DNA of 64,000 nt from Candidatus Woesearchaeota archaeon (GTDB lineage Archaea > Nanobdellota > Nanobdellia > UBA10117), in the NCBI GenBank assembly GCA_964354105.1, contig CAYGXM010000003.1:789-64788 (forward strand), written 5' to 3'. This document shows positions 3,389 to 46,050 of the stretch, piece by piece. The first letter of the stretch is position 1. Every line of letters starts with the position of its first letter. Under the pieces are notes generated by a model that was given only the letters and a program-made list of their open reading frames with translations, had not been told where the DNA came from and did not search any database. Position numbers and translations under genes: made by a program.

Positions 3389-4693
3389 ATGGAGGCTGCT
3401 AGGGAGAAGGAAAAAGGAAAGCTTGCCAAGAAAGCCGGCAAGAAAACACTTGCAGGAATGTCTTGGCTTGGAAGAAAAACTGGGAAGCTTTTCAGGGATT
3501 CTATTCTTTTGGCAAGGCCTTTGAACAAAAAAGAAAGCTTTGTATTTTCAAAAGTCCGGCCATACTTAAAAGAAGGCGAGGAATTCAAGCTGCAGAAAGC
3601 GATTAAGCAAGGCAAGGCTAAGATCAAATTAAACAGATACGGCTGGTCTTTTCTCATTTCTGGAAATGACCTGCGGCCAAAAATCTTTTTTGTAAAGCCC
3701 GAGAAAAGAAGATTGAATCCGGATCATGATATAGAGGAAAAGCAGCAATTTTGGATAGAAGAATTGGACAAAAGAATCCGGAGACAATTTTTTGAACATA
3801 ATTTCCGGGAATTTGCAGAAAAAGCATGGACAGCAGCGCCACAATTCATTGGGCCAAATATTATTGGGTTAAAACATGTCAAGGAAGCTGCAGCTTTGCA
3901 GTTGTTTTGCAAAGAGCAGACTCATATTTTATTGCTTGGAGACCCTGGAACAGGAAAAACTGATATTTTGCGGTCAACTGCAGATTTGAATCCAATATCT
4001 GTATTTGGATTGGGCTCAGGAACATCAGGAGTCGGCTTAGCTGTTACAGTAAAAGGAAAATATGTGAGTCCTGGATTGTTGCCGAAAGCAGATTTGGGTT
4101 TGGCATGCATAGACGAATTAAATCTGATGAAGAAGGACGATTACGCGGCCCTGTACAACGCAATGGAAAAAGGCTTCATCACATATGACAAAGGAGGGCA
4201 TCACTACAGGTTTAATGCCCGCATTAAAGTATTGGCTACTGGAAATCCAAAAGGAGATAAATTTACAGCCTATGATTTGGAAACTGTAAAATCACAAATT
4301 CCTTTTGATTCTGCGCTTTTATCGAGATTCCATTTAGTTTTTATTGTAAAGAAGGCGACATTAAATGAATTTTCAGAAATTGCAGAAAAGATAATTTCTG
4401 AAGACAAAGTAAAAATAAATCTTGCAGATATTTTATTCTTGAAGAATTATGTTCGTTTTGTAAACAAATTAGATGCAGAAATCCCACATAATCTTGCTGA
4501 AAAAATCAAGGACTTTGTAACAAATCTGAAGGAAAAGGAAGCAGAACTGCCATTTGAGATAACCCCAAGAACAGTAATCGGAGTTACAAGACTGGCAAAA
4601 GCATCAGCCAGGATGGAACTAAGAAGTATTGTAGAAGGAAAAGATTTGGACAGGGTATTTAATATTATTACAAAAGCATATTTACTCTCATGA
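3389..4693 (+). CDS. MCM-family AAA+ ATPase without a recognisable MCM N-terminal domain
   Basis: Walker A LLLGDPGTGKT, Walker B ACIDELNLM, sensor-1 VLATGNP and an Arg-finger-like SRFHLVF occur in MCM-like order and spacing. Only about 160 Lys-rich aa precede the ATPase core, and no OB-fold or Zn motif was seen. Confidence 0.7.
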   Translation: MEAAREKEKGKLAKKAGKKTLAGMSWLGRKTGKLFRDSILLARPLNKKESFVFSKVRPYLKEGEEFKLQKAIKQGKAKIKLNRYGWSFLISGNDLRPKIFFVKPEKRRLNPDHDIEEKQQFWIEELDKRIRRQFFEHNFREFAEKAWTAAPQFIGPNIIGLKHVKEAAALQLFCKEQTHILLLGDPGTGKTDILRSTADLNPISVFGLGSGTSGVGLAVTVKGKYVSPGLLPKADLGLACIDELNLMKKDDYAALYNAMEKGFITYDKGGHHYRFNARIKVLATGNPKGDKFTAYDLETVKSQIPFDSALLSRFHLVFIVKKATLNEFSEIAEKIISEDKVKINLADILFLKNYVRFVNKLDAEIPHNLAEKIKDFVTNLKEKEAELPFEITPRTVIGVTRLAKASARMELRSIVEGKDLDRVFNIITKAYLLS

Positions 4694-4711: not shown

Positions 4712-7700
4712 CTAGGCATTCTTTAATGCTTCTTCTTGTCTTTTTCTCCATATTTCCTCACGGTAACTATCGATTGCAGCTTCACGGCGCAGAATTCTTG
4801 GCGGCATGCCAAGCCACTTGTAGAACTCATGAGGAAGAGATGTAAATACCACGTTCTTTTTGGCTTTATTAACTTCTTCAATAGATTTAATTATATCTAT
4901 TTTATTTTCTGCGAAATATTTCAAAACTTCTGTTCTCAGGTATATATTTTCCGCTAGCAAACGATTATCGTATCTACCCATTAGTATACCTTCTACATTA
5001 GTAGTGCCGTTTTCGTAAAGACTTTGCTGTGCTTTTGCTTCGATTAATTCTTCTAATAATAGAAAGCCCGCTTCGCGTCTTTCATCTGCCTCACCACGCA
5101 TCTCCTGCCAAAGTGTATTTATTTTGTCTAAATTTATGTGTAAAGCTTCGTCATTAAAGTAAATATTTTGTGAAACATCATCCCTAAATGAATACACAGG
5201 CTTCAAATGTTTAAGGCCAACTATGCTACTAATTTTTCTATCTAGCTCTCCAATAGAATCTAACAATGTTAAATATGCAGTATCATTTGGTTTTATTCTC
5301 GCAACCCTTTTAGTATCCAATATGCCAAAATCCTTTTTGTTTTTATTTCGGATTTTAAACGCTAGTTTTGAAAAATAGTCACCTATGTCTTGGAGTGTAT
5401 AGTCCTGATAGTTTGGAGGCGACTCACTTTTCCACAAATCAGTAAACCGCTCTTTCGCGTTCGCGAATTTGGTTTTTACGGCCTCGATGCGCCGTGCCCA
5501 CCCCTCGCTTCTCTTTTGTTTGGCTTCCTCTTTTTCCTTGAGCTTATTTTCTCTGATTGTAACCCACTCCATCTCTTGCTCCCTTAGCCGGGCCGCTTTT
5601 TTCCGAGCCCTAAATTCTCTTTCTGTAGCCTTTTTCTTCCTATCTTTTAGCCATCGCGTATACCAGGAACTACTGCTATCTACAAGACCTTGCGCAGCTA
5701 GCTTGCCATAAACATAAGGTATTCCAAACAATTGATAAAAGCCATAACCAACATCTCTACAAAAGTCGCCAATTGTGTCGAGATAATCTTCTAAAACTTT
5801 TACATCATATTTTTTATCAACCTTGAGTTTTATTTGGTCTAATCTTGTAACAATTCGATTGACTAGCGGATTACTATGTATGTCAACAAAATAGTCGCCA
5901 TCTTTTAACCAAAAAGCCTCTTTTTCAGTATCATATTTTAGCTTATCTTTAAAGTAAAGTTCTATCAATTTTTCAATGGATATGCGCATAGGTGCTCCGC
6001 GAAGATGTTTTCCGCTAAAAACATATCTTTCGCCGCCAATGATGTCTGACAAATAATTTTGCGCTTTTGGGCCTACAGAGACTGAGTCGCCAGCATATAA
6101 CGCGGCAGGTATTATGTCCTTAGACATTATTTCGCGAAAGAAATCGTCAGCCTTAATTTTCAGTGTATATTTCTTAGCCAATTTCTTACGTAACTTTTCT
6201 CTTTTTAATTCACGTTTTGCTTCAACATCTACATAAATATTTAATTTTTTCTTAAGGTCGTCTTTTATTTCATGCAAGTTATATTTTAGGTCACTCAAGG
6301 TAAATTTGTTTTTCGCATAAACCCCTACATCAAGTGCACCAAGTCCTATTGCAGCAAGTCCTGCAAGCGCTTGAGGCCCGTATGCTTTGTAAAGCGCGTC
6401 TAGACCAATAACAGCACCTATGCCGATGGCTGTTCCTGCGCCTATTACTCCGCCCGCCAGCAAAATTCCTTCTAGCGTAATATTGTGGCTGCTAGAAATT
6501 TTTTTCTTTGAAGATGGTGTTCGCGAGCGCATTTTGTCATAAACACTGCCTAGCCATTCTCTTACAGAACCACCAACTTCTATTATTTTTGCAGCTCCGG
6601 TAATGGCTCCACTATGGAAACGTCGCGAGATTGAATAATTTTGTTTAAATTTATTTGTCAAATCTGATTTATACTCAGATTCAAAAATATCTGCAAGCTC
6701 TTCAAGTAGTGCGCTCGATGGGTGCTTCATAATTCTATCATCACCCAATACGCCGCTAAGGAACAAATCCTCAAATGCTTCATACTCTGCAGTTAAAACT
6801 TCTATTTGATTATCTGCTATTATGCTGTTTCTACCTTTAGTTAATGTTACTGCTCTTGGCAGATTTACCCAAAAATCTACTCCTGTTTGCACTAAGCTAT
6901 TCATTAATTTGTAATGCAATGTTTTCTCGTCAAAAGGAATATTTTCATTTTTAATGAAAAGTCCGCGCTGTGTTAAAATAATTTTGTCGGAGTTAGAGTC
7001 ATCTTGAGATCCTGGACTTGTTAAATTCTGACATGAGTAAGCAATTGTCAACCCTTTGTCGCTGCCCTTGAGGTCAACGTCAACACCTTTTGATTTTGTA
7101 TATGCGCGTTCTGGATTATTGACCCACGCACCGTTAAAATAAACTCTTGCATCATTTGAGCTAACATGGCCAACATACTTAATGGCATTGGCCTTGAGCT
7201 GTTCAGGCTTGGTTATACTTTTTGGAATGTACATCGTAACTGTTGTTCCCTTGCCATTAAGCTCGAGCGGCGCATCTTTTGGCAATAAGTACACATCTGC
7301 AAGCCACTTTCCATCCTTTGTTTTTGATTCATTGTGCACAACTGATAAAATAGTATAATCTAGATTGGAAGTTTTACTCAATGTAGCTACAAATTCAGCC
7401 ATGTCTAGAGTTGAATACCAGCCTATACCATGTTCGCCTATTTTATTTGGGTTGAATTCTTTTGGCGAATTGTACGGAACTAAAAGGTCCCTAATTTGGC
7501 CCTCAAGGTCCATTCCACAGCCCTTGTCTGCTACGGTTAGGACATAGTATCGATCTTGCTCTTCTACACTATAATTTATTTTTCTTTCAGCATCAGATGG
7601 CTCATACGAATCCATCGAGTTCTGGTTAAGCTCGCGCAATGATGCATAACGATTGCCAAATTGTGCCTCTATTGTTTTATTAACAATGCCTTCAAACAAT

Positions 7701-7912
7701 TTTGGCGAAGTCTGCTTTTCGCGTGTTAATTCTATATATTTTACAGCCTGCTCAAAGCTGGCATTTTTAGTAGATTTAGGCAAAGCCTTAATAAAGCCAT
7801 CAAAATCGCCCGCCATTTGCATCATTACTAAATCATTGAGGTAGAATCTCTGATGGGGGTAGCTATTAAGATCCGTTAACAACTCATCAAGACCGTTATA
7901 AGATTCGTACAT
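4712..7912 (-). CDS. 1066-aa GHKL/Hsp90-like ATPase with central glycine-zipper hydrophobic segments and a basic coiled-coil region
   Basis: Bergerat-fold motifs: RELNQNSMDS (N box), VADKGCGMD (G1) and IGEHGIGWYS (G2), at residues about 93-166. Residues about 481-533 read GILLAGGVIGAGTAIGIGAVIGL...ALAGLAAIGLGALDVGVYA. Residues about 753-823 are a K/R/E-rich helix. It is the last gene of the operon. Confidence 0.7.
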   Translation of the reverse strand: MYESYNGLDELLTDLNSYPHQRFYLNDLVMMQMAGDFDGFIKALPKSTKNASFEQAVKYIELTREKQTSPKLFEGIVNKTIEAQFGNRYASLRELNQNSMDSYEPSDAERKINYSVEEQDRYYVLTVADKGCGMDLEGQIRDLLVPYNSPKEFNPNKIGEHGIGWYSTLDMAEFVATLSKTSNLDYTILSVVHNESKTKDGKWLADVYLLPKDAPLELNGKGTTVTMYIPKSITKPEQLKANAIKYVGHVSSNDARVYFNGAWVNNPERAYTKSKGVDVDLKGSDKGLTIAYSCQNLTSPGSQDDSNSDKIILTQRGLFIKNENIPFDEKTLHYKLMNSLVQTGVDFWVNLPRAVTLTKGRNSIIADNQIEVLTAEYEAFEDLFLSGVLGDDRIMKHPSSALLEELADIFESEYKSDLTNKFKQNYSISRRFHSGAITGAAKIIEVGGSVREWLGSVYDKMRSRTPSSKKKISSSHNITLEGILLAGGVIGAGTAIGIGAVIGLDALYKAYGPQALAGLAAIGLGALDVGVYAKNKFTLSDLKYNLHEIKDDLKKKLNIYVDVEAKRELKREKLRKKLAKKYTLKIKADDFFREIMSKDIIPAALYAGDSVSVGPKAQNYLSDIIGGERYVFSGKHLRGAPMRISIEKLIELYFKDKLKYDTEKEAFWLKDGDYFVDIHSNPLVNRIVTRLDQIKLKVDKKYDVKVLEDYLDTIGDFCRDVGYGFYQLFGIPYVYGKLAAQGLVDSSSSWYTRWLKDRKKKATEREFRARKKAARLREQEMEWVTIRENKLKEKEEAKQKRSEGWARRIEAVKTKFANAKERFTDLWKSESPPNYQDYTLQDIGDYFSKLAFKIRNKNKKDFGILDTKRVARIKPNDTAYLTLLDSIGELDRKISSIVGLKHLKPVYSFRDDVSQNIYFNDEALHINLDKINTLWQEMRGEADERREAGFLLLEELIEAKAQQSLYENGTTNVEGILMGRYDNRLLAENIYLRTEVLKYFAENKIDIIKSIEEVNKAKKNVVFTSLPHEFYKWLGMPPRILRREAAIDSYREEIWRKRQEEALKNA

Positions 7913-9538: not shown

Positions 9539-11356
9539 TTAACCACTTCCTCCTAAACCGTCACGCGTAGTTTTAATACTTTTTTTAATAAAATCCGCTG
9601 CAGATTCTATTAAATTAACGTCAGCGCCTATACCTCTCATGGCCGAACTAAAGTTGTCCTCTTCGCCAATCTTAAATAACACAAACTTGTCGCAGCCGTC
9701 TTCAAGCATTGGTGCTATTGTATCAACCACTTGCGTAGAATTTACAAGCCCGCCGTCCGTAAGCATTATAGACATATAATTATCACGCCTCGTATCGTGC
9801 ACTTTTTTAAGGTCATTAATTTCAAGCACAGTATCTGAACCACCAAATTTAAACGCTTTTTGTTTTGCTTCGTCCAAGCCATCAAAGCGCTGCCAGTCAG
9901 AACTTTCTGTTTTATCTGAAAATACAGTAACGTTATAGTTTAGTAAATACTGCAGGCCTAAACTTTCAATTGTGTTAAGCGTTCCGTAAAAGCCAAGTAA
10001 TGCCAAATGATAAGGACTGCTGTTGTCAAATGGAATAAAATTCATACTGCCGCTGCGGTCTAAGATGAAATTCAAATCAGGAATTGCGCCAGTCTTTTTA
10101 TAATTCTGCGCTATCCTCAGCGTAATAGGATATACTTTCTGGAATAGTTCTATGTATGGCTGGCCGTTTGGCTGTTTAGCCAATCTTATTGATGACCAGT
10201 CAACTCTGTTAAAATCAATGTCCTCAAGTGATGTTTCCTCAGAGCCGACATATTTTGAAAATGCAAGGCCTGCGCATTCGACGTCAAGCTCTATCCTTTT
10301 CGCCGCTTCTCTATATTTTCTGTCAAGCTCTTCAAATGAATATACGAAATTGTTTACATCTCTAACTTTACTATATTTCCTTTTTTCAGGTTTTTTAGAA
10401 TCTGGCCTTCTATTATTATTGTTATCTCCCGTAGGAGTGTTTCCTTGGCCGCCATCCTCTTCATCCTGATTTTCCTGCTGGTCATCTTTTTGCTTGACTA
10501 ATTGGTATATATCCAAGGGAGCAAGTATCTTTGCATACTCTCTTGCTTTAGCTTTCCACGCAGGCATCTTTGCCACCTCATCACAAATTTTTCTCGAAGT
10601 TTTATCGTCGATGTTGCAGTCAAGCACAGCATCGCACAAATCTTTGTCCTCGCCCAAAATTACATTCAAGAGTTTTTTGCGCATGCGTTTGTAGCCAAGC
10701 ATATATTTATCGAGAAAGCTTCTGTTTACATATGTGAGATACGATTCGCCGTTCCATAAGTAAAGATTTGTATCCATGAAAAGGTTGAATGATTTCTCGG
10801 TGCGCTCGAAAATACTTTTATCCTTTTTTGAGAACTCAAAATTACTTAAATAAGACCAAAGCATCCCATGTTTAAATCTCTCAGCATCTTTGTCCTCGTA
10901 AGATAAGATAGTATTGGCTATCGTATCCATAAACATATTGCTAATGCGTTGCGTTTTAGCCATAACCATTATAGGTTTCCATTCGTGTAGAATTACACCT
11001 TCGCGTATGCCTTTGAGAATTTCTTGTGCGCCTTTTTCTGTTGCAGGGCAATGTCTTGCATGGCCTTCTTCATGGCTTATAAGTCCGTACAGCGAATCGC
11101 ACGCCAATTCTTTTGTAGAGTCTTTCATGGCATGCTTGTATCTTAAATGATCGAGCACGTCGTAAAATTCAGGCCGAACGCCAATTCTTACCTGGTTTGA
11201 TAGCATATTAATATAAGCAAATGAGAGTGTAGGTATTTCTGGCTGAACTGTAAACTCTAAACTGGAAATTAGGTTTTTTTCTTGTAGCATCGCCTCGCAA
11301 GCTTGCCTTAGTTCTCCAATCTTAACTTCATTTTTGGTTGCCATTTTAATCTTCAT
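9539..11356 (-). CDS. predicted HExxH metallopeptidase-like domain fused to a C-terminal vWA (MIDAS) domain
   Basis: HExxH (SHEEGH, 11060-11074). An acidic/Asn-rich linker follows (QENQDEEDGGQGNTPTGDNNNN). The vWA MIDAS DxSxS motif is ILDRSGSM (10043-10060). An alternative ATG at 11344 lies 1 nt after the upstream stop. Confidence 0.75.
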   Translation of the reverse strand: MKIKMATKNEVKIGELRQACEAMLQEKNLISSLEFTVQPEIPTLSFAYINMLSNQVRIGVRPEFYDVLDHLRYKHAMKDSTKELACDSLYGLISHEEGHARHCPATEKGAQEILKGIREGVILHEWKPIMVMAKTQRISNMFMDTIANTILSYEDKDAERFKHGMLWSYLSNFEFSKKDKSIFERTEKSFNLFMDTNLYLWNGESYLTYVNRSFLDKYMLGYKRMRKKLLNVILGEDKDLCDAVLDCNIDDKTSRKICDEVAKMPAWKAKAREYAKILAPLDIYQLVKQKDDQQENQDEEDGGQGNTPTGDNNNNRRPDSKKPEKRKYSKVRDVNNFVYSFEELDRKYREAAKRIELDVECAGLAFSKYVGSEETSLEDIDFNRVDWSSIRLAKQPNGQPYIELFQKVYPITLRIAQNYKKTGAIPDLNFILDRSGSMNFIPFDNSSPYHLALLGFYGTLNTIESLGLQYLLNYNVTVFSDKTESSDWQRFDGLDEAKQKAFKFGGSDTVLEINDLKKVHDTRRDNYMSIMLTDGGLVNSTQVVDTIAPMLEDGCDKFVLFKIGEEDNFSSAMRGIGADVNLIESAADFIKKSIKTTRDGLGGSG

Positions 11357-12095
11357 TTACAGTCATGTACTGCGAAGGATTTCCAGTAAAGCGTTTTACT
11401 ATGAGTTTGAAAAGAGAATTTAGCTCTTCAAAACAAGGTTCAGGCAATGGATCTTTGTGTATTGTATGTATATTGTATAGCCAGTCATAAGTTTTATTGG
11501 GATTTTTTCTAATGTTGCAGGTGCTAATCATAACTTCACTGTATTCGTCCACGATTCCGCGTCTATACTCAAGTACCAAATGTGTTGCACCATCCAGTAT
11601 TTTTCGGATTCTTTCATCCTTGGTTTCCAGCAAATCGGAAATTGAACTAGGCGCGGAAAGCTGACCCTTTGCTATTCTTATACAATCTTCAATTCCAAAA
11701 ATGTCTAATTTCAACGGGCCTCTGGTGATGTAACCTTGCTCTAGCTCTTTTTTATCATATACCTTTATGTCAAAATTGCGCAGCTCTTGATTATCGAAAT
11801 GAAGCGTGATATTGTGTCTTCGAAGTTTATCCAGAATGCTCTGCCAGCTTTGCGCAGTTCCAACAATGTTTAAATCAACTACATCAACGCGTTCAGGACC
11901 ATATTTGAGGCTGAGCGCAAGTCTTGCACTATCTTTAGTGTAGTCTTTGTTAAATGTTACACTAAGATTATGTTCTCTTGCTTTAGTTTGTTCAATTGCC
12001 AACTGCACAAATGGCCTAATGTCTTTCGCATTAAATTTGTGGTCAAAAACTTCAGGGTAAAATTGCTCTTCAAATTTTTTGGGATCGAGAGGCAT
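11346..12095 (-). CDS. hypothetical protein (249 aa), operon member
   Basis: ATG at 12095 is preceded by GGAGG (minus-strand sequence TTAGGAGGACTCAAAATG). No motif recognised. It is tightly packed between the AAA+ and vWA genes. Confidence 0.6.
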   Translation of the reverse strand: MPLDPKKFEEQFYPEVFDHKFNAKDIRPFVQLAIEQTKAREHNLSVTFNKDYTKDSARLALSLKYGPERVDVVDLNIVGTAQSWQSILDKLRRHNITLHFDNQELRNFDIKVYDKKELEQGYITRGPLKLDIFGIEDCIRIAKGQLSAPSSISDLLETKDERIRKILDGATHLVLEYRRGIVDEYSEVMISTCNIRKNPNKTYDWLYNIHTIHKDPLPEPCFEELNSLFKLIVKRFTGNPSQYMTVNED

Positions 12096-12106: not shown

Positions 12107-13693
12107 CTAATAAAGGTCCGTGCTGCCTTCAGTGATTTTTTTTGCAGGCTTGTTATACGCTTCAAGCACAACATGTAGCCAAGGATTATTCATATCACAA
12201 TCATTCTTAATTTTAGCCAGCGTGTCTTTATCAGCGGTGCCATTTACAACTGCTGCAAGATCTTGCGGGCCAATTTGCTGCAAACCTTCCATAAACTTTT
12301 TTTCCGCCCTATCTAGGAAAAATTCGACAGCAGCTAGTTTGTTTCCACCGAAGTTTTTGGTTACGTATGGTTGTGAAATATTTATTTTAGAGTATGCAAC
12401 AAAGCCGAGTGCAGCTTTAATATCGCCTATCTCTACTTCTAATTGGTTGGCATATTTTTTTACAGCTTGCTTTGCGAGCTGCTCATCAGTAATATTGCTT
12501 CCATTATCGACATAATTTCGTAATGAGTCCTTGAATTTTGTAGGATTTTTTATAGTATATGATAGTGGTATGCTGTTTTGGCCGCCTGTTAGATAGCCGT
12601 GCACAAGTTCTGCAAATTTTGTAGCCCTAATAGCAGCAAGTCCGCGCGCAATCAGAACAGTGTTTTTTGCCACGCCAGGAGTTAAACCACGTACATTTGG
12701 ACACAACTCTTTGCCGTCCTTATCGGTTCCATCAAGAATTTCGAGAAGACCGCAACGTGTGTGCACACTGCGGGCATCTAAGGCATCAGCATCGCCTGAA
12801 CAAAGTTTTCTTACTTGTTCTGGTGAAACCGCGCCTTTGCCTCGCTTCAATTTTTTGCAGTAATCAAATGCGCTAAGATATGAAACAAACATTTCTGCAT
12901 TAGGATTTACTGGAATGTTGCCAAGTTCTTTGTAAATGCAAAGCACATCTTCTAAGTTATCTGCTTTGTTGTTGAGGTCTATTTTTCTAGTTCTGCTTCG
13001 TTGTATTTCCAGCTTGTCGTGTGATGTTGGTGGAAAAGCATCTATTGGAATTTCAATCAAAGCTCGCCTTCGTGCAGCCTTGTCCATACCAAACGTGCCT
13101 GTGTAGTCTTCACCTTCATTTATGGCCATTATTTGAAATTGATAGCGCTGATTATTCCCGATGTCTGCGCCGATCAAGGCTCTCTTGCCATCAGGAAGAC
13201 TAATATCACCATCAAGAACGTGCATCAATTTATTCAGCAAAACAGCATGAGATCTGTTGAATTCATCTATAATCAATCCAGGCTTCAAAAAGAAAGCCCT
13301 CAAACTGTAAAATCCGTCAGATGATTTTTTACCTTCCGTTATAACGGAATAATCAATATCTGTAAAGGCTTCCTTGCCAAAATCAGTGTCGACATCGATT
13401 CTGTGCCAACCATCATTCTCCTGCCCAAAAAGCGCGTTCATTGTCAATTTTGCTAGTGTAGTTTTTCCAGTGTCTGTTCCACCAGTCAGCAAAACGGGAG
13501 AATTTGTTAAAGCACCGCTAAGCAGAATATCTTTAATTCCATAATGGACTGTAAACATGTGTTTTTGCTTTGATTCGTCAAGTATGATTTGGCTGTCTGA
13601 GTTGGCTAGTACAGCAGAATGTTGGTAGGGATTTGTGTTGTTGTAAAGTGCATACCTAAGCTTATGGGCCTTCTCCAAGATACCAATTTCCAT
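12107..13693 (-). CDS. MoxR/AAA_5-type AAA+ ATPase (528 aa)
   Basis: Walker A LLTGGTDTGKTT, Walker B GLIIDEFNRS, sensor-1-like MAINEG and the Arg cluster AARRRAL. A single AAA+ module is followed by about 300 aa of C-terminal extension. It is the first gene of the operon. Confidence 0.8.
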   Translation of the reverse strand: MEIGILEKAHKLRYALYNNTNPYQHSAVLANSDSQIILDESKQKHMFTVHYGIKDILLSGALTNSPVLLTGGTDTGKTTLAKLTMNALFGQENDGWHRIDVDTDFGKEAFTDIDYSVITEGKKSSDGFYSLRAFFLKPGLIIDEFNRSHAVLLNKLMHVLDGDISLPDGKRALIGADIGNNQRYQFQIMAINEGEDYTGTFGMDKAARRRALIEIPIDAFPPTSHDKLEIQRSRTRKIDLNNKADNLEDVLCIYKELGNIPVNPNAEMFVSYLSAFDYCKKLKRGKGAVSPEQVRKLCSGDADALDARSVHTRCGLLEILDGTDKDGKELCPNVRGLTPGVAKNTVLIARGLAAIRATKFAELVHGYLTGGQNSIPLSYTIKNPTKFKDSLRNYVDNGSNITDEQLAKQAVKKYANQLEVEIGDIKAALGFVAYSKINISQPYVTKNFGGNKLAAVEFFLDRAEKKFMEGLQQIGPQDLAAVVNGTADKDTLAKIKNDCDMNNPWLHVVLEAYNKPAKKITEGSTDLY

Positions 13694-45970: not shown

Positions 45971-46045
45971 GGGCCCGTAGCTCAGCCAGGTCAGAGCATT
46001 GGCCTTTTAAGCCAGTGGTCGCGGGTTCAAATCCCGTCGGGCCCG
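45971..46045 (+). tRNA. tRNA-Lys (anticodon TTT), no intron
   Basis: Acceptor GGGCCCG/CGGGCCC, anticodon arm TTGGC-CTTTTAA-GCCAG, variable TGGTC, T arm GCGGG-TTCAAAT-CCCGT, discriminator G. Confidence 0.9.
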
Positions 46046-46050
46046 CTCCC

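Follow-up and report, generated by a model that had tools for sequence, protein, structure and literature searches.

A 64,000-nt stretch of DNA from a Candidatus Woesearchaeota archaeon (GCA_964354105.1, contig CAYGXM010000003.1, positions 789-64,788; the whole stretch is called the window below) carries an operon of five genes. The fifth and last of these (P0001; 4712-7912) encodes, by translation of its open reading frame (ORF), a long Hsp90-like GHKL protein of 1066 amino acids (aa). Coordinates here and below are those of the window and, unless marked (+), refer to its minus strand. We propose that residues 482-533 of P0001 probably form a membrane hairpin with both ends cytoplasmic, serving as an anchor and probable dimerisation element for paired Hsp90-like ATPases and, via these, for their soluble partners. 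Membrane insertion itself we consider quite likely, because it is required both by this reading and by an alternative, discussed below, in which the hairpin acts as an effector. The proposal is carried by direct observations of the sequence features of the segment, of its conservation, of its exclusivity to a family of long-form proteins and of the absence of packing against a soluble domain in the structural model.

A Gly/Ala-rich hydrophobic segment in P0001

An earlier, sequence-only reading of the window had quoted residues from about 481 to 533 of the 1066-aa GHKL protein as a hydrophobic module flanked by a basic tract. Window positions 6314-6472 translate to EGILLAGGVIGAGTAIGIGAVIGLDALYKAYGPQALAGLAAIGLGALDVGVYA, residues 481-533 of P0001, identical to that quotation, and the basic tract is present as RSRTPSSKKKISSS at residues 462-475, directly upstream of the hairpin. 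This region, a basic Ser-rich tract in full (MRSRTPSSKKKISSSHNITL, residues 461-480; 6473-6532), is the proposed cytoplasmic flank ahead of helix 1. Helix 1 itself (residues 482-504, GILLAGGVIGAGTAIGIGAVIGL; 6401-6469) consists of 23 uncharged residues, eight of them Gly, with three GxxxG motifs. It is followed by a nine-residue turn, DALYKAYGP (residues 505-513; 6374-6400), for which we propose a location as a short extracellular or interfacial loop. Helix 2 (residues 514-533, QALAGLAAIGLGALDVGVYA; 6314-6373) completes the module with a second apolar segment of 20 residues that includes Asp528 near its C-terminal end and has KNK directly after it.

The composition of this segment sets it apart from the remainder of the protein. 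Gly and Ala account for 25% and 23%, respectively, of residues 481-533, figures that may be compared to 6% and 7% in P0001 as a whole, and 13 Gly residues per 53-residue window are reached by 0.16% of P0001 shuffles. Kyte-Doolittle (KD) hydropathy exceeds 1.6 in all P0001 only at residues 483-501 (2.01) and 515-533 (1.71), one peak for each of the two helices. The height of the hydropathy peak by itself is unexceptional when measured against shuffles (p ~0.09).

Structural modelling with AlphaFold2, based on 30 sequences, gave a model of P0001 with a mean predicted local distance difference test (pLDDT) score of 68, with values mostly of 80-90 across residues 10-430. Helices are modelled at residues 481-511 and 514-534 with pLDDT values of 30-44, compared with 80-90 for the neighbouring domains, and there is therefore no confident packing of either helix on any soluble domain. 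The sequence-only reading would have been undermined by a model that buried the segment in a soluble core; AlphaFold does not do so.

Conservation of the proposed hairpin among homologues

When 1.84 billion cluster representatives were searched exhaustively with HMMER, 155 matches were returned, 70 of them below 1e-30; homologues share 31-42% identity. Long forms, of roughly 900-1900 aa, make up about 50 clusters, come almost entirely from metagenome-assembled genomes (MAGs) of Woesearchaeota, Nanoarchaeota and Pacearchaeota, and have the whole architecture in common. Each of the 30 long forms that were aligned has two uncharged stretches of at least 15 residues at the corresponding alignment position, and so do nearly all of the approximately 50. 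Across the 30, the helices have median lengths of 17 and 21 residues and the turn one of 9. The turn has the consensus YGxYxLYxxYGWxPF, with positions corresponding to G503 and G512 of P0001 nearly invariant. Short forms, by comparison, are of 650-800 aa, include spirochaete sequences and align to residues 24-420 only; not one contains an uncharged stretch of at least 17 residues. The hairpin is retained by all the aligned long forms and nearly all of the rest, and is absent from the distant short forms, in which everything beyond about residue 430 is missing, a distribution that sustains the module against the possibility, raised when it was first noted, that homologues might lack it entirely.

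The degree of conservation follows the same boundaries. Majority identity is 0.37-0.51 within the hairpin, the turn being its best conserved part at 0.51, compared with 0.23-0.30 in the flanking linkers and 0.60 in the ATPase. Helix ends are abutted by Lys or Arg in most of the 30 homologues. In five family members, namely P0027, P0164, P0166, P0033 and a 1319-aa protein from the L020 contig described below, the Gly-rich helices are exchanged for classic, strongly hydrophobic ones, with KD values that reach about 2.2 where the hairpin lies and 2.5-3.0 in other parts of the middle region. The turn motif is retained by P0027 and P0164, in the form LYKSFGWAPF. The module had originally been described as unusual for an Hsp90-like ATPase; the data bear this out and show it to be both hydrophobic and conserved. 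Comparative evidence favours its embedding in a membrane: basic residues bracket it, classic hydrophobic helices take its place in some homologues and AlphaFold packs it confidently on no soluble domain.

Two further observations concern the module as a unit. It is tandemly duplicated in P0031 and P0162, where the turn motifs read YGGYELYQNYG and YGLHEVYSHYG. No stand-alone small protein carrying it was found in a profile search of 3672 candidates.

Glycine spacing and the zipper label

The segment had been labelled a glycine zipper on account of GxxxG-type spacing in both of its helices. For helix 1 the description is accurate, since G487, G493 and G499 each start a GxxxG motif, three of the seven in the whole of P0001; helix 2 has small-xxx-small pairs only. 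Helix 1 also displays a ladder of small residues at i+4, comprising G487, G491, A495, G499 and G503. The glycine-zipper motif is reportedly defined, following Kim et al. in 2005, as (G,A,S)xxxGxxxG or GxxxGxxx(G,S,T) within an apolar helix. A495-x3-G499-x3-G503 fits the first of these forms, placing a zipper motif in helix 1 by definition.

The periodicity itself does not extend to the family. Measured against shuffled versions of the helices of the 30 homologues, Gly-Gly pairs show no enrichment at a spacing of 4 (z = -0.57); they are enriched at spacings of 2, 5 and 6 and depleted where the two Gly are adjacent. Even within P0001, small-residue pairs at spacing 4 are no commoner than at other spacings. 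The canonical zipper motif is found in 15 of the 30 homologues. Searches with three hairpin fragments matched none of the Pfam glycine-zipper families at E <= 10, producing only an insignificant match to DUF7248. Since i+4 periodicity is not a family feature, we have dropped 'glycine zipper' as the defining label. As judged from the alignment, the conserved traits are an uncharged composition of small and aliphatic residues, the segment length, an aromatic turn and bracketing basic residues, rather than a single-face zipper.

Proposed topology and role

Net charge over the 30 homologues is +2.3 in the N-terminal flank, +1.3 in the C-terminal flank and +0.17 in the turn. These charges match the positive-inside pattern for a hairpin whose ends are both cytoplasmic, the side on which the ATPase must also be. 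In most homologues a further hydrophobic pair is present at around residues 760-1070; the number of spans stays even and the same topology would be kept.

We infer from these features that the segment is inserted in the membrane with a given topology, that it takes part in dimerisation and that it anchors the operon partners. The helical hairpin 482-533 would insert in the cytoplasmic membrane with its N- and C-terminal ends on the cytoplasmic side. With both ends so placed, the ATPase module and the C-terminal half would remain cytoplasmic, tethered close against the membrane. Gly and Ala lie on several faces of the helices and would permit very close packing, with more than one neighbouring helix, inside the hairpin; dimerisation of the GHKL domains on ATP could also pack the hairpins of two protomers together. 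Because P0001 is the sole hydrophobic component of the operon, it would localise the whole assembly to the membrane, bringing there the short GHKL protein, the HExxH/vWA-like protein, the 249-aa protein and the AAA+ ATPase. The hairpin had been suggested to be the membrane-targeting or the effector part of the operon. The first half of that suggestion is a fair reading, given that no other element of the operon is hydrophobic; the second is a separate matter, treated below.

A number of points weigh against insertion. A TopPred-style scan with the Goldman-Engelman-Steitz (GES) scale recognises residues 483-503 (1.84) and 511-531 (1.12) as the sole 'certain' segments of P0001, but the scan was a re-implementation and is biased toward Gly and Ala. 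The Hessa apparent free energy is marginal for helix 1 (+1.3 kcal/mol) and worse than +4 kcal/mol for helix 2, and Asp528 falls within the latter. Hydrophobicity is marginal in most family members: the equivalent segments have mean KD values that lie mostly between 0.3 and 1.2, with many homologues under 1.6, and helix 1 has in many of them just 16-17 or so uncharged residues, often with Pro, which is short for a full span. The low pLDDT of the modelled hairpin would fit disorder equally well. Finally, the 30 aligned sequences are related to one another, and the charge statistics and the counts drawn from them are accordingly not independent.

Alternative readings of the segment

Rather unlikely, in our estimation, is that P0001 is an ATP-regulated membrane-perturbing effector. 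Here the GHKL clamp would close on ATP, perhaps under the control of the AAA+ and vWA-like proteins, and would gather hairpins that are inserted, or peripherally poised, into a pore or lesion through their small-residue faces, with the consequence that the cell or the host of the episymbiont would be depolarised, as is done by abortive-infection effectors. Such a role would benefit from Gly and Ala on several helix faces, which favour tight multi-helix packing, and would account for a turn motif that is conserved more than a bare anchor requires. It also sits well with an operon that is sporadic (2 of 41 related genomes), differs in its flanks and lies beside an MCM-like gene, as is typical of accessory or conflict systems, and with the repeated recruitment of GHL ATPases to defence set out in a preprint (10.64898/2026.09.30.754977). 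Set against these points, PADLOC yields no system-level match, only weak TmtA matches on the ATPase motifs of the short paralogue, neither a nuclease nor any other recognised effector domain turned up, and the family does not conserve the canonical zipper spacing. Several homologues, moreover, have ordinary hydrophobic helices and have lost the motif, and this replacement of Gly-rich helices argues that what is essential is to be embedded in the membrane and not to have one particular pore architecture. A more elaborate scheme to which we attach similarly little probability is that of a heterodimeric clamp of short and long Hsp90-like subunits, controlled by the AAA+ and HExxH/vWA-like proteins, that forces hairpins together and so opens a pore or brings about membrane remodelling or fusion. 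Were it true, this hitherto undescribed kind of ATP-driven membrane machine could serve as an abortive-infection effector or as part of the cell-cell interface between DPANN episymbionts and their hosts.

The apolar helices might, instead, be soluble, forming an inter-protomer bundle that replaces the missing C-terminal four-helix dimerisation bundle of Hsp90. GHKL/Hsp90 ATPases need a second dimer interface and the Hsp90 C-terminal domain is undetectable here; an inter-chain bundle would be invisible to a monomer AlphaFold run, and the marginal hydrophobicity of most homologues can be turned to the same account. We nonetheless think such a core unlikely. With its 23 uncharged residues helix 1 lacks a polar face, such that a soluble bundle of two or four helices would expose apolar surface, both helices are bracketed by Lys or Arg, the turn is rich in aromatic residues, and homologues that have helices of KD 2-3 and between four and seven hydrophobic segments can hardly be soluble proteins.

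Very improbable is a flexible, low-complexity Gly/Ala linker or beta-structured segment acting as an interdomain spacer with no defined helical hairpin, which would agree with the pLDDT of 30-44, with the enrichment of Gly spacings 2, 5 and 6 but not 4 and with a periodicity that varies among homologues, but not with the conservation of length, uncharged nature, aromatic turn and flanking charges, with a module conserved above the adjacent true linkers, or with interspersed Ile, Leu and Val that make it hydrophobic, unlike typical disordered Gly-rich linkers. A resemblance to beta-hairpin pore-forming toxins, prompted by the enriched Gly spacing of 2, was likewise rejected as a leading explanation: the periodicity varies among homologues and the model gives helices. 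The membrane hairpin anchor is thus the reading that we favour.

The Hsp90-like ATPase part of P0001

Profile searches, Foldseek and sequence motifs concur in assigning residues 25-430 or thereabouts (6623-7840) to an Hsp90-like N-terminal ATPase domain followed by a middle domain. The motifs E94-x3-N98-x2-D101, D129-x-G131 and G159-E-H-G-I-G-W165 occupy columns of the family alignment that are invariant or nearly so, and K359 and R361 are invariant in the family. When a profile built from ten homologues was used, the Hsp82/Hsp90 N-terminal domain was matched with an E-value of 5.4e-10. Foldseek comparison of the P0001 model aligned the N-terminal and middle domains of TRAP1 (PDB code 4ivg) with an E-value of 1.6e-10 over some 414 columns, and those of GRP94 and HtpG with E-values of about 1e-10 over approximately 400-437 columns. 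Identity in these fold alignments to Hsp90 proteins is about 15%.

Direct family assignments are weaker. Pfam registers only HATPase_c in P0001 (E 0.0029, below the cut-off) and the Pfam HSP90 model was unmatched in the same scan. The NCBIfam model for a sacsin N-terminal ATP-binding-like domain scores 24 bits against P0001 and 34 bits against P0002, the short GHKL paralogue, where the cut-off is 50. No Hsp90 C-terminal dimerisation domain was detected in P0001, full-length Hsp90 targets aligning over the N-terminal and middle domains only. With the GHKL/Bergerat motifs and a middle domain present, and with neither the Hsp90 C-terminal domain nor a match to the HSP90 hidden Markov model (HMM), P0001 is Hsp90-like in its first 430 residues only.

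The C-terminal half of P0001

The hairpin is followed by a basic helix (residues 557-600, IYVDVEAKRELKREKLRKKLAKKY...; 6113-6244), which starts a domain spanning residues 565-720 and is modelled as a helix at 563-584. Its majority identity of 0.64 is the highest value outside the ATPase, and Y560, K570, F591 and K598 are invariant. Further downstream, the long helices rich in Lys, Arg and Glu that had been remarked on at residues of about 753-823 correspond to a single long helix in the AlphaFold model, of low pLDDT, covering residues 751-828 (about 78 residues; 5429-5662). It resembles an ER/K-type single alpha-helix or a coiled coil. This helix stands where most homologues have their second hydrophobic pair, and P0001 is gapped there in the alignment. 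Having a deletion of this second hydrophobic zone, P0001 is a minimal, single-hairpin member of the family.

The remaining residues, 846-1066 (4715-5377), are modelled as an alpha/beta domain of unknown fold with pLDDT 75-90. When the C-terminal half was modelled separately (pLDDT 65) and compared with the PDB using Foldseek, nothing significant emerged; the best match, to the transmembrane/metalloprotease domain of BlaR1, had an E-value of 0.31 and was not relied upon. The long forms have in common, within this domain, the conserved His motif LLDxLIHxRAHxx...H...H (at residues of about 950-985), which looks, from its sequence, like a metal site; its columns for H958 and H962 are nearly invariant. 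P0001 reads LLEELIEAKAQQ at this position; the motif is lost, so that P0001 may lack the function of that site.

The five-gene operon

The operon comprises five co-directional genes with tight spacing, encoding, in order, an AAA+ protein, a 249-aa protein, an HExxH/DxSxS protein, a 543-aa GHKL protein and the long GHKL protein P0001. Scans of all five products against Pfam, NCBIfam, PHROGs and PADLOC produced weak GHKL and AAA+ matches only and assigned no system. Hydrophobic segments are absent from all four partners of P0001, both here and in three other operons.

Immediately preceding P0001 is the gene for P0002 (7915-9546), a short GHKL ATPase paralogue of 543 aa with a match to HATPase_c_3 (E 3.2e-6) and no hydrophobic segment. 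It aligns with P0001 by BLASTP with an E-value of 1e-9, spanning the ATP-binding motifs, and is the proposed dimer partner of P0001. P0003 (605 aa; 9539-11356) is a soluble protein characterised by motif conservation as having an HExxH motif and a vWA-like (DxSxS) motif: H95, E96 and H99, as well as D433, S435 and S437, are invariant among four orthologues. It has no HMM support, and PDB searches with the single sequence or with a profile of the four orthologues yielded nothing usable. P0004 (249 aa; 11346-12095) is soluble, of unknown function and conserved in its operon position, with zero family matches in the Pfam, NCBIfam, PHROGs and PADLOC scans. The first gene encodes P0005 (528 aa; 12107-13693), a soluble AAA+ ATPase that is weakly MoxR/AAA_5-like (AAA_5 E 0.0023, below the curated cut-off). 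The sole PDB yield came from its profile, which matched 2r44 best (E 0.0098), and its Walker A sequence, GGTDTGKT, is invariant.

The next gene beyond the downstream end of the operon is encoded on the other strand (3389-4693 (+)); its 434-aa product has an MCM P-loop and lid but not the usual N-terminal domain, and this MCM-like gene may mark a mobile-element remnant. ARAGORN, applied to the window from 1 to 64000, found two tRNA genes only, at 410-484 and 45971-46046.

Distribution and origin of the system

Other DPANN MAGs contain the five genes in the same order, with other genes on either side of them. A P0001-type protein was found in just 2 of 41 related genomes. The neighbouring genes in the window, for a wyosine-forming radical-SAM enzyme and the MCM-like ATPase, are archaeal, and the genome carrying the window is 0.72 Mb in size. 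The system is accessory, and probably moves horizontally, on the grounds of its rarity among related genomes, that of the window being so small, and of its archaeal neighbours.

Three more distant occurrences were noted. A complete five-gene operon lies on a 1.3-Mb contig of 47.7% GC labelled Blastocatellia, an acidobacterium bin (L020:5392-15423), the name being a bin label only; in its long GHKL protein there are several hydrophobic helices of the classic kind. A 330-kb IMG/VR contig of 34.5% GC that is filed as viral (L025) also encodes a related long GHKL protein. Lastly, a spirochaete MAG (L023:8403-12076) has an overlapping pair of GHKL genes, of 530 and 694 aa and related to P0002 and P0001, beside parA and parB. 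Both the AAA+/vWA genes and the hairpin are absent from the spirochaete case. Because the GHKL pair is found there alone, it suggests that the two GHKL proteins are an ancient core, possibly a heterodimer, to which the hairpin and the C-terminal half were added in the long-form lineage.

Comparison with known systems

P0001 shares with HtpG, TRAP1, GRP94 and cytosolic Hsp90 the Bergerat motif order ExxxNxxD, DxGxG, GxxGxG, followed by a middle domain. Unlike them, it continues with a hydrophobic hairpin and then a C-terminal half of about 500 residues and unknown fold, and it is encoded alongside a second GHKL protein and AAA+ and vWA-like partners. Hsp90-type ATPases are known as soluble chaperones or as nucleic-acid-directed enzymes, and we know of no Hsp90-family member with an integral membrane hairpin.

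Atlastin/Sey1 and mitofusin are large NTPases that have a dimerising head, helical regions and a central two-helix membrane hairpin, with the flanking parts on one side of the membrane. P0001 resembles them in its proposed central hairpin, its long helices and the basic helix near the hairpin, but the analogy is functional only: those proteins are dynamin-like GTPases, whereas P0001 is a GHKL ATPase with no sequence or fold relationship to them. The Gly-rich inner helix and helix-turn-helix arrangement of the ATP-synthase c-subunit are also like the P0001 hairpin. Likeness to the families Gly-zipper_Omp, Gly-zipper_YMGG, Rick_17kDa_Anti and Transgly_assoc extends to Gly/Ala-rich apolar helices, with no HMM match.

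With regard to the Tiamat/sacsin-type GHL ATPases, the resemblance lies in the weak, sub-cut-off sacsin N-terminal matches of P0001 and P0002 and in the weak TmtA matches of P0002. These latter cover 70-100 residues of the ATPase only, and P0001 has no PADLOC match. Unlike Tiamat, P0001 contains neither DUF3684 nor NOV_C according to the Pfam scan, and a PD-(D/E)xK nuclease was not found in it. The available part of the Tiamat preprint (10.64898/2026.09.30.754977) describes modular, fast-evolving C-terminal regions and a sporadic distribution for GHL defence proteins, both of which are points of likeness to the proteins presented here, and that part describes no membrane hairpin in Tiamat-type families.

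The weakly MoxR-like AAA+ protein and the protein with an invariant DxSxS motif recall MoxR-vWA pairs such as RavA-ViaA, the Bat operon and an archaeal virus tail-assembly pair. Differing from these, the present operon has two Hsp90-like ATPases, one of them proposed to be membrane-embedded, and its MoxR and vWA memberships are below curated cut-offs. The coupling of MoxR and vWA proteins has been reviewed (PMC7159879); that review never uses the terms Hsp90, HATPase or sacsin, and a pairing with two Hsp90-like ATPases is not listed in it. Literature searches combining MoxR, vWA and GHKL/Hsp90, in DPANN or archaea, found no account of the operon or of a membrane-embedded Hsp90-like ATPase. The ATPase fold is a known one; what is undescribed is the operon, together with the membrane module and the C-terminal half of P0001.

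Significance

The hairpin is best viewed as a supporting detail that localises a more interesting, unexplained system. The family is found chiefly in DPANN archaea, which have minimal genomes and need membrane contact with their hosts, and most of whose accessory genes are without an assigned function. An Hsp90-like ATPase joined to a conserved membrane hairpin would, if true, be a new architecture in the GHKL superfamily. A location at the membrane would narrow the hypotheses for the operon to the maturation of membrane proteins or surface structures, defence, or interaction with the host, and the hairpin, its Gly residues and the catalytic Glu offer handles by which these may be tested.

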